From Escherichia phage vB_Eco_ORH_001: a stretch of DNA of 44,456 nucleotides. Under the pieces are notes generated by a model. The model was not told where the DNA came from, did no database searches, and was given only the letters and a program-made list of their open reading frames with translations. Positions 40,671 to 41,547 of this stretch are shown here, piece by piece. Within the stretch, counting starts at the first letter, position 1. Each line of letters starts with the position of its first letter. The position numbers and the translations under genes are program-made. The stretch lies in sequence record PV656001.1; one strand, written 5' to 3'.

Positions 40671-40698
40671 AAAAAGAAAGGGGCGTTAAGCCCCTTCA
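40671..40698. terminator. hairpin terminator between the convergent primase and XRE genes
   Basis: aaggggc-gttaa-gcccctt with A-run upstream; the XRE stop codon lies in the loop. Confidence 0.55.
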
Positions 40699-40901
40699 CC
40701 GAACGCCAGCCACTTGGCATCTACTTGCAGCACTTCCGCCAGTTTAAACAGCGTTGCCGGGCGGACGTCCTGAGTTACTCCGAGTGCCAGCTGGTTAATC
40801 GCGCCCTGGGAAACGCCAGCCAGAACAGCCAGACGGCGCTGGGATATGCCGAGCTCTTTACGGCGCTGTTCTACACGGATTCCTAGTTCAGATGGTTGCA
40901 T
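40686..40901 (-). CDS. XRE/Cro-C1-type HTH transcriptional regulator
   Basis: 71 aa; ISQRRLAVLAGVSQGAINQLALG is a canonical HTH; RBS AAGGAG; divergent from the tandem early promoters. Confidence 0.8.
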   Translation of the reverse strand: MQPSELGIRVEQRRKELGISQRRLAVLAGVSQGAINQLALGVTQDVRPATLFKLAEVLQVDAKWLAFGEGA

Positions 40902-40921
40902 GTCAGTTACTCCTTAGTTAG

Positions 40922-40950
40922 TTGATATGTGAATAGTACCATATTAATTA
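40922..40950 (+). promoter_or_regulatory. promoter TTGATA-N17-TAATTA with operator AATAGTACCATATT (40932..40945); overlaps the divergent XRE promoter
   Basis: Hexamers and palindrome read directly; the minus-strand TACTAT -10 for the XRE gene overlaps the same operator. Confidence 0.5.
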
Positions 40951-40965
40951 TTTTAGAAAAGCCCA

Positions 40966-40994
40966 TTGACATGTGAATAGTTCGCTATTATAGT
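40966..40994 (+). promoter_or_regulatory. strong promoter TTGACA-N17-TATAGT with operator AATAGTTCGCTATT (40976..40989)
   Basis: Same architecture as 2326..2354 and 43279..43307; operator centre is 44 bp from the 40932..40945 operator. Confidence 0.65.
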
Positions 40995-41025
40995 TAGCCC
41001 ATACCAAACGAGAGGAGAGAAACAA

Positions 41026-41547
41026 ATGTTAGAGAAATTCTTGGTATTACTGGAACGTTTCGTAGTCGCCCACGAACTGATTGCTGCAAACAGTGTGAAA
41101 CAACCGACTAGCAAATCTGTAGGTGAATTGACTGTTGACGTCGCGGTAACTGGGGTAGAGACAGTTAAAAAAGAACTGGCTAAAGCACTTGAAGAAGTCG
41201 AGAAGGCGAAAGAAATCCCGGTTGAAGGTGAAGACATCGTCGACACTAAACCGGCAGAAGAAGAGAAGCCAAAACGTAAGCCGCGTAAAGCTAAAGTAGA
41301 GGAGTCGACGCCAGAACCAGAAGAAGAGAAAGAAGAGGTCGATTACCAGTCTCTTCGTGACCAGATTCAGGCTATCGACGATGCAATTAACGAAGGTCCG
41401 AGCGATGCCGCGTGCGACGATTCTGATGAACTGCTGGAAGAGTTCACCGGTAAGAAGATGAAGATTGCTGCGATTAAAGACGAAGACCTGGCCGAGTACC
41501 TGGAACGCCTGATGGCAATCAAGAACAAGTATTTCGAAGAAGAATAA
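41026..41547 (+). CDS. highly acidic early protein (173 aa), hypothetical
   Basis: Glu/Asp-rich with a short basic patch KPKRKPRKAK; first gene after the tandem promoters; RBS GAGAGGAGAG. Confidence 0.5.
   Translation: MLEKFLVLLERFVVAHELIAANSVKQPTSKSVGELTVDVAVTGVETVKKELAKALEEVEKAKEIPVEGEDIVDTKPAEEEKPKRKPRKAKVEESTPEPEEEKEEVDYQSLRDQIQAIDDAINEGPSDAACDDSDELLEEFTGKKMKIAAIKDEDLAEYLERLMAIKNKYFEEE

Follow-up and report, generated by a model that had tools for sequence, protein, structure and literature searches.

A Cro-like XRE protein and a dispersed, promoter-associated dyad in Escherichia phage vB_Eco_ORH_001: a probable genome-wide repressor system

The DNA of Escherichia phage vB_Eco_ORH_001 (sequence record PV656001.1; 44,456 nucleotides (nt), here called the window) is the complete genome of a siphovirus in Kagunavirus, subfamily Guernseyvirinae. 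At 40686..40901 on the minus strand it encodes a 71-amino-acid (aa) helix-turn-helix (HTH) protein of the XRE family, related to Cro of phage 434, and a 14-bp dyad, AATAG-N4-CTATT, recurs both upstream of this gene and at promoter-like elements elsewhere in the genome. The reading favoured here, which is considered probable, is that the XRE protein is an autoregulated repressor of the Cro type without a CI counterpart, acting at dispersed operators to lower the transcription of early and middle genes, and to a lesser degree of late ones, in the lytic cycle.

A dispersed dyad on promoter-like elements

With up to one mismatch allowed, AATAG-N4-CTATT is found at 12 sites in the window, against 1.27 expected. 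Chance is excluded as the source of this count, because none of 100 shuffled sequences reached 12. When all palindromes of the form 5-Nx-5 were enumerated, the dyad ranked first in the window (7 exact copies versus 0.03 expected), and the remaining top palindromes were GC-rich terminator stems. The same enumeration in Jerseyvirus Ent2 also placed AATAG-N4-CTATT first, with 4 observed. A scan at two mismatches added nothing (2 of 14 sites non-coding).

Non-coding DNA, which makes up 5.5% of the genome, holds all or most of eight of the 12 sites (P=3e-8). Of three further sites, one falls within the final 22 nt of the resolvase gene, with the next gene 39 nt away, one at a gene start and one in a dubious 59-aa open reading frame (ORF) with a GTG start, so that 11 of the 12 are in, or at the edge of, non-coding DNA. 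The twelfth, at 38606 inside the helicase-primase gene, is probably a chance match. The seven exact and four intergenic one-mismatch sites are spread from 2336 to 43289 (Table 1).

Eight sites, plus the XRE gene's own promoter (P_xre), overlap a recognisable sigma-70-type element, be it the spacer, the -10 or the -35. The dyad occurs in three registers relative to the -35 and -10 elements and is for this reason taken to be an independent element, not a part of the polymerase recognition sequence. In class A promoters, TTGAC(A/G)-17-TATAGT, the operator lies in the spacer, from -25 to -12 (2326, 40966 (P_R) and 43279). In class B promoters, TTGCAC-17-TACTAT, it lies over the -10, from -19 to -6 (15749(+), 35590(-) and 37362(-)), as it also does in P_xre. 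On the late strand, a one-mismatch operator covers the -35 of TTGACT-17-TATATT at 32757(-). The operator at 37333..37346, which covers the -10 of a leftward class B promoter, also fills the spacer of a rightward one, CTGATA-17-TATATT. Exact sites are found on early and replication promoters, and the one-mismatch sites are O1, located in P_xre, and those of the late region. In Jerseyvirus Ent2, the 15765 site has an orthologue at 15796, and the 32749 site is conserved at 40728.

The operators of 434 and of P22 c2 are 14-bp dyads with a 5-4-5 geometry. AATAG-N4-CTATT has this same geometry.

The XRE locus in this phage and its relatives

The product of ORF 40686..40901(-) matches Pfam HTH_3 over residues 11-65 (E=1.2e-12; 48.1 bits versus a cut-off of 23), and its closest solved structure by sequence is that of phage 434 Cro, likewise of 71 aa (E=4.9e-7, residues 6-68). 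An AlphaFold model (pLDDT 84) has helices at residues 5-17, 21-28, 32-39, 48-57 and 62-66. The top Foldseek match of this model was 2cro (TM 0.72/0.78, 40% identity), and restriction-modification C-proteins were among its structural neighbours. Judged by its domain and modelled fold, the protein is a member of the XRE/434-Cro family. In the 434 and P22 c2 proteins, a conserved Gln that starts the recognition helix contacts the outermost adenine of the operator, and an Arg near the operator centre reads the centre indirectly. Both residues align in the XRE protein, and the alignment conserves the Gln opening the 434 recognition helix (Q28) and the Arg-Pro motif after it. The protein is Cro-sized, has no oligomerisation or cleavage domain and is predicted to act as a dimer on a dyad-symmetric operator. 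In a phage collection, the nearest homologues from outside the family, at ~45% identity, include a Klebsiella phage protein annotated cro and proteins of other, probably temperate, phages.

The XRE gene is the lone leftward gene between two rightward operons and is monocistronic, sitting between its own promoter and a terminator. The helicase-primase operon ends at 40668 and converges with the XRE gene across a common hairpin (40677..40697). The operon from 41026 encodes a 173-aa protein, a 90-aa protein and an exonuclease, and is followed by the SSB and DNA polymerase genes, which have a promoter of their own. Among 36 distinct relatives, the variable columns of the XRE gene fall 23/9/59 by codon position, a pattern indicative of purifying selection. 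In loci around the SSB gene from 64 relatives, an XRE homologue was found on the opposite strand, ~3 kb upstream of the SSB gene, in all 58 that cover the position, and this synteny extends to relatives with SSB just 45-50% identical.

The XRE gene is missing from GenBank PV656002, which annotates in its place an antisense 53-aa ORF at 40725..40886(+). This antisense ORF has 4 synonymous versus 46 non-synonymous variable codons and contains stops in 10 of 36 relatives; on these counts, the gene call is wrong. In Kagunavirus and Jerseyvirus generally, the 'repressor' gene is annotated variously as DicA, Cro or repressor and filed among replication genes, or is overlooked, as in this record. Other calls in PV656002.1 are also on the wrong strand: the genes for the major capsid protein (22927..23976(-), 349 aa) and the scaffold (23979..24734(-), 251 aa) are absent from the annotation, and a 551-aa antisense ORF at 22885..24540(+) is annotated where they sit.

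Upstream of the XRE gene, a 25-nt direct repeat (40922-40946 and 40966-40990; 84% identical, 44-bp spacing) carries the imperfect operator O1 in its left copy and the perfect operator O2 in its right copy. No third dyad was found in this intergenic region at up to two mismatches. An earlier note on this DNA had described a Cro/C1-type HTH gene, transcribed from a leftward promoter whose -10 overlaps the first of two operators 44 bp apart, and each of these features was confirmed: 434 Cro is the best match of the protein by both sequence and fold, and the -10 hexamer TACTAT (40939..40934) lies within O1 at a position conserved in Jerseyvirus. The operators are also well placed to repress both the rightward promoter and the XRE gene's own. 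Its pair of tandem early promoters held in part. The one at 40966..40994 (P_R) is strong, and its hexamers are invariant or nearly so across 36 distinct relatives, with TTGACA invariant. The other, at 40922..40951, is weak, and its function as a promoter is doubtful because its -35 varies in several relatives (TCGATA, CCGATA, TTTATA).

P_xre has no good -35 in this phage (CTTTTC). Its TACTAT matches in position the TTGCGT-17-TACTAT promoter of Jerseyvirus and the class B promoters at 15765, 35561 and 37333. An alternative leftward promoter, TTCACA-16-TAAAAT, is less conserved in relatives than the TACTAT element. Whichever of the two is used, an XRE dimer bound at O1 or O2 would stand in its way. 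O1 and O2 are 44 or 45 bp apart in Kagunavirus and 55 bp apart in Jerseyvirus, spacings that differ by roughly one turn of the helix. The helical face of the two operators may thus be kept, either for cooperative binding or to let O2 activate P_xre, two genera being too few to decide.

Both dyads were present upstream of the XRE gene in 37 of 37 Kagunavirus loci from IMG/VR, with invariant half-sites and variable centres. The O1 half-site is imperfect in the identical way in all 37, with TACC, TATC or TAGC at the centre, and O2 has the centres TTCG, TTAG, CTCG, TTCA, TTTG and CTAG between unchanged half-sites. When Kagunavirus and Jerseyvirus were pooled, 111 distinct contexts of exact sites contained 36 central tetranucleotides, and the flanks weakly preferred K/M. 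The promoter-operator module of P_ssb is kept in 40 relatives, even with unrelated upstream DNA. In Jerseyvirus Ent2, with an XRE protein ~51% identical, the same dyad is found at orthologous promoters.

The XRE alleles of the relatives were sorted into types. Types D and G keep an AATA-N6-TATT core. Type-E relatives have the recognition helix GASQGYISHLRSG and no AATAG sites; they carry instead TTAGC-N2-GCTAA (3 exact versus 0.01 expected), which occupies the same spacer in P_ssb, covers the -10 in two leftward promoters and also lies beside the XRE gene. In the sequences compared, the dyad thus varies with the XRE allele inside promoters whose hexamers are constant.

Table 1. Operators, promoter-like elements and neighbouring features discussed in the text (window coordinates)
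Feature	Position	Strand	Description
TTGACG-17-TATAGT	2326..2354	+	Perfect operator 2336..2349 in spacer; serves methyltransferase/helicase/HNH genes
Class B TTGCAC-17-TACTAT	15749..15778	+	Perfect operator 15765..15778 over -10; serves superinfection-immunity/exonuclease cluster; divergent from tail genes
One-mismatch site	25503..25525		Overlaps inverted dyad CTATT-CG-AATAG; late-region intergenic gap, no clear promoter
One-mismatch operator-like site	27132..27145		Next to terminator, late region; intergenic, no clear promoter
TTGACT-17-TATATT	32729..32762	-	One-mismatch operator 32749..32762 over -35; head of late-gene strand
Class B TTGCAC-17-TACTAT	35561..35590	-	Perfect operator 35561..35574 over -10
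Perfect operator AATAGTAACCTATT	35887..35900		Intergenic gap, no clear promoter
Divergent early region	37323..37362		Perfect operator 37333..37346, common to leftward TTGCAC-17-TACTAT and rightward CTGATA-17-TATATT
Hairpin, candidate terminator of XRE transcript	40677..40697	- (T-run)	GC-rich, between convergent helicase-primase and XRE genes; candidate intrinsic terminator from terminator scan, 8-bp stem
Promoter-like TTGATA-18-AATTAT	40922..40951	+	Rightward; scan 9/12, weak; left copy of 25-nt repeat
O1, imperfect operator AATAGTACCATATT	40932..40945		One mismatch to perfect dyad; overlaps -10 of P_xre; proposed autoregulatory site
P_xre core, extended -10 TGgTACTAT	40934..40942	-	-10 hexamer 40939..40934, inside O1; read from sequence, inferred start
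Alternative leftward promoter TTCACA-16-TAAAAT	40950..40977	-	Scan 10/12; -35 abuts O2; O1 just downstream of start
P_R TTGACA-17-TATAGT	40966..40994	+	Promoter scan 11/12, strong; serves 173-aa/90-aa/exonuclease operon
O2, perfect operator AATAGTTCGCTATT	40976..40989		Fills P_R spacer, about -25 to -12
First gene of P_R operon	41026..41547	+	173 aa; ORF, PHROG 3127; without Pfam match
P_ssb TTGACA-17-TATAGT	43279..43307	+	Perfect operator 43289..43302 in spacer; serves SSB (DUF2815) and DNA polymerase genes

Proposed repression circuit and alternative explanations

We infer that the XRE protein binds the dyad, that repression is the effect and that the sites are occupied in a definite order. 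As a homodimer of the 434-Cro type, the 71-aa protein would recognise the 14-bp dyad (K)AATAG-N4-CTATT(M) at about eleven operators, each so placed that a dimer on it would stand in the way of the host's sigma-70 RNA polymerase. The dimer should exclude the polymerase because each dyad overlaps a -35, a spacer or a -10. At the start of infection there would be no repressor, and all promoters would fire. Rising XRE would first occupy the perfect operators on replication and early promoters, and at higher levels also the one-mismatch operators, namely its own O1, resulting in negative autoregulation, and the late-region sites. The outcome would be a self-limiting shut-down, a dosage-limiting feedback on early and middle transcription, in a purely lytic cycle. 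Such a job resembles that of Cro in lambda or 434 minus the CI partner, and with no CI-type partner there would therefore be no bistability. In the one published RNA-seq study of a Kagunavirus (K1B4; PMC12645636), gene 004, the XRE orthologue, falls in the 'middle' class and gene 008, which encodes HTH_17, in the 'early' class. The 'middle' class of gene 004 fits a delayed accumulation of XRE, at a coarse sampling. The earlier note had offered, as one of its suggestions, a regulator that times early gene expression in a virulent phage, which comes close to this best-supported reading.

Several points weigh against repression by XRE as just described. Repression of every promoter class, including the late one, makes a 'general brake' clearer than a 'temporal switch'. 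Control by the dyad is not total, because some promoter-like sites lack it (-37684, -30557, -32879 and TTGCTT-17-TATACT before the HTH_17 gene). The recognition helices of Kagunavirus and Jerseyvirus differ (SQGAINQ versus SQSLITH, in proteins of ~51% identity), yet the dyad is common to both; 434 Cro and the N-terminal domain of 434 CI are similarly diverged and have their operators in common. When eight XRE allele types were set against their palindromes, type E differed clearly, and no single residue tracked the base changes. For the type-E relatives, a host factor that differs between hosts may conceivably play a part. No convincing operator emerged for Cornellvirus or for types F and H. 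In the Cornellvirus phages SP-031 and St162, AATAG-N4-CTATT is absent and ATTAG-N4-CTAAT is not significantly enriched (3 versus 1.07); TATTA-N6-TAATA occurs three times, at orthologous positions. Finally, searches of the literature on repressors, operators and promoters of Kagunavirus, Jerseyvirus, Guernseyvirinae and Jerseyvirinae turned up neither an account of the operator nor an experiment on the XRE protein. Systems of this kind are known; the genome-wide regulon of this one appears to be undescribed.

Among the alternatives, it is unlikely that XRE is a dual regulator, which would repress most promoters and activate P_xre from O2 in a delayed, self-limiting pulse, with O1 as the off-site at high concentration, comparable to lambda CI at PRM or to the C-proteins. 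P_xre lacks a usable -35 and has an extended -10 only, the O2 centre is ~55 bp upstream of the inferred P_xre start, the 44/45- and 55-bp spacings of O1 and O2 are about one turn apart, and C-proteins are structural neighbours of XRE. However, P_xre of Jerseyvirus has a reasonable -35 (TTGCGT), which makes an activator dispensable; -55.5 is no classical activation position; two genera are too few for helical phasing; no activation surface is known on a 71-aa Cro-like protein; and TTCACA-16-TAAAAT would require no activator. Distinctly unlikely is a dyad bound by a factor other than XRE, either a host nucleoid or transcription factor, in the manner of the Spo0A sites that silence the early promoters of phi29, or another phage protein, with XRE as a local regulator or none at all. 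XRE binding is read from sequence, the dyad is common to two genera despite ~51% XRE identity, their enterobacterial hosts are similar, and the HTH_17 protein is 82% identical between them. But the sites persist in a Kagunavirus relative (L070) and in types D and G, none of which has HTH_17; where the XRE allele differs, relatives carry TTAGC-N2-GCTAA in place of the dyad at these promoter positions; every Kagunavirus has two copies of the dyad around its XRE promoter; and the dyad has the geometry of the 434 and P22 operators. Also, we know of no E. coli factor with an AATAG-N4-CTATT consensus.

Two further alternatives assume a temperate or dormant phage. The lambda-like switch of the earlier note, a bistable immunity switch of a (formerly) temperate phage, is extremely unlikely. 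It accounts for divergent promoters with operators, and the nearest homologues from outside the family, at ~45% identity, include the Klebsiella cro and proteins of probably temperate phages. Against it, the annotation and the scanned ORFs revealed no CI-type repressor, S24 peptidase domain, integrase or excision module. A CI-type second repressor was neither annotated nor found in 15 small ORFs, a subset of all ORFs, and Pfam gave no HTH or S24 domain in ten small leftward early ORFs. In addition, there are just two operators 44 bp apart and no tripartite OR-type cluster, the same operator is found on about nine other promoters (some eleven copies genome-wide, which cover most of the promoters that can be recognised), and no prophage relatives were found. 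It is also very unlikely that XRE is a global silencer of a dormant or carrier state (pseudolysogeny), in which high XRE would shut every operon and the genome persist unexpressed, similar to the dispersed operators of P1 C1 or of gp71 in mycobacteriophage L5. Operators on early, middle and late promoters agree with it, as does a whole Kagunavirus genome deposited in PLSDB as a circular, non-mobilizable 'plasmid' (pC16EC0033-2, CP088689.1; 44,086 bp) from an E. coli blood isolate in Korea. This is the sole such record among 72,556 plasmids and could represent a carrier-state culture or contamination; a circular assembly is weak evidence, being what a permuted, headful-packaged genome should give. 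Moreover, no plasmid-replication genes are annotated, nor are integrase or partition genes in this genome or three relatives; the earlier note had also stated the lack of an integrase in this genome. XRE is of Cro size, without an oligomerisation or cleavage domain, and O1 over its own -10 would limit its level. The XRE region had no match in 5,426 complete E. coli genomes and, in 185,579 species-representative genomes, no prophage copy and one match, scaffold NZ_JACVEL010000022.1 of Taishania pollutisoli (18,987 bp). Published accounts treat these phages as lytic and as forming clear plaques (PMC9787291, PMC11990801). Little support thus remains for the non-integrating temperate or carrier form raised in the earlier note. 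Equally slim is the prospect of a whole-genome silencing circuit through which supposedly strictly virulent therapeutic Kagunavirus and Jerseyvirus phages would become dormant, or be carried, reversibly and without integration; cells or prophages expressing a matching XRE allele would then be immune to the group sharing its operator, and the AATAG and TTAGC variants would be immunity groups like those of lambdoid phages.

Comparison with known systems places the XRE protein nearest to 434 Cro, with 71 aa, a five-helix HTH fold, ~40% identity and a Gln at the start of the recognition helix. This phage also has, like 434, a 14-bp 5-4-5 dyad with conserved outer bases and a free centre that overlaps sigma-70 promoters, and a regulator gene divergent from an early operon. 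Unlike 434, it has no CI partner and no tripartite OR/OL, and for these reasons no bistable switch is expected; it is virulent, its half-site is AATAG versus ACAAG in 434, and about eleven dispersed operators stand against six in two clusters. A second CI-type repressor, tripartite operators and lysogeny functions, the marks of a lambdoid immunity switch, were all lacking here in the annotation and the subset of ORFs scanned. P1 C1 and L5 gp71, which acts at 'stoperators', also serve as one repressor with many scattered sites on many operons, including their own. Their sites are asymmetric, the repressors are larger and maintain lysogeny, as a plasmid or integrated, and L5 stoperators act within transcribed regions. 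In contrast, the sites here are symmetric and on promoter elements, no lysogenic state is known and no prophage relatives were found. The C-proteins C.AhdI, C.BclI and C.Esp1396I are likewise small XRE dimers with two dyads of different strength and autoregulated timing after cell entry. C-boxes, however, consist of two dyads side by side within ~35 bp, immediately before the C gene, and control one operon, whereas the dyads here are 44 bp apart and genome-wide. The neighbours of the XRE gene are the helicase-primase gene and the 173-aa gene; the methyltransferase gene lies ~6 kb off, beyond the window junction, and the annotation lists no restriction enzyme. XRE antitoxins of type II toxin-antitoxin systems (HigA, HipB) differ in gene arrangement, as the XRE gene is monocistronic and has no adjoining small ORF on the same strand. 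Phage phi29 is also virulent, with strong sigma-A/sigma-70 early promoters shut by proteins at promoters (p4/p6 and host Spo0A), but its proteins and sites are unrelated to the XRE system. The phi29 protein p4 is in addition an activator of the late promoter, and Spo0A comes from the host (PMC2731898).

Several other candidates were considered and rejected. The only other HTH protein found was HTH_17 (37782..37964), an 'excisionase' by PHROG family name; as a binder it is contradicted by L070, which lacks it and keeps six exact sites, and by types D and G, which lack it and keep AATA-N6-TATT. The phage methyltransferase was dismissed as a binder on the example of Jerseyvirus Ent2, which has the sites and no annotated methyltransferase. 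For a role of the dyad in RNA, the stem is only 5 bp and AU-rich, and no Rfam match was found anywhere in the window. Blocking of some Kagunaviruses by DicA-like cryptic-prophage repressors via the operators was also set aside; the BASEL paper attributes the inhibition to O-antigen glycosylation and tailspike type.

Neighbouring elements and wider meaning

A promoter-like TTGCTT-17-TATACT at 37722..37750(+) lies directly upstream of the HTH_17 gene and has no operator, which may explain why HTH_17 is the only annotated 'early' gene in the K1B4 RNA-seq. On the other strand, 37435..37684(-) contains a strong promoter-like TTGAAA-18-TATAAT (11/12), followed by ~210 nt without an ORF and by an intrinsic terminator (37455..37435). 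The predicted RNA fold has z=-4.3 and includes a long hairpin, GGAGUUGACGAACCCUCCCCGAGGGAUUCGUCAACCCCUCC, with no Rfam match; conservation is confined to the 3' ~95 nt, which 16 relatives share, Jerseyvirus among them. The element is a candidate phage small RNA, or may be an inverted repeat resembling an origin. In L070, a 47-aa CxxC protein and a 149-aa protein (4400..7355) replace the HTH_17 gene and its neighbours, and the helicase-primase (755 aa) has a different N-terminal domain. Thus, the module upstream of the replicative helicase is subject to mosaic exchange.

Shortly after P_ssb, the 5' leader of SSB (DUF2815) contains a hairpin, CCGGG-CAGTT-CCCGG (~43316..43336), that all relatives keep; in the distant type-E relatives its stem has changed in a compensatory way (CTCGG...CCGAG). 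The hairpin could serve as an operator that acts on the translation or the stability of SSB mRNA. In the late region, a perfect 16-bp palindrome at 25510..25525, AACTATTCGAATAGTT, has the half-sites in reversed order (CTATT-CG-AATAG) and overlaps the one-mismatch operator at 25503. The T. pollutisoli scaffold is Jerseyvirus-like, with SSB 77% identical, in the draft genome of an unrelated bacterium, and is probably sequencing contamination.

Kagunavirus and Jerseyvirus phages are widely isolated and have been proposed for therapy and food biocontrol. If the proposed Cro-only repression is true, the XRE gene would be explained without invoking lysogeny, and a concrete regulon and promoter map would be available for an unstudied phage subfamily. 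XRE expressed in trans should then block infection, a simple form of engineered immunity, and the relatives would provide phage engineering with small natural pairs of repressor and operator that differ in specificity. For regulatory biology, the system would represent a familiar mechanism in an unfamiliar arrangement.

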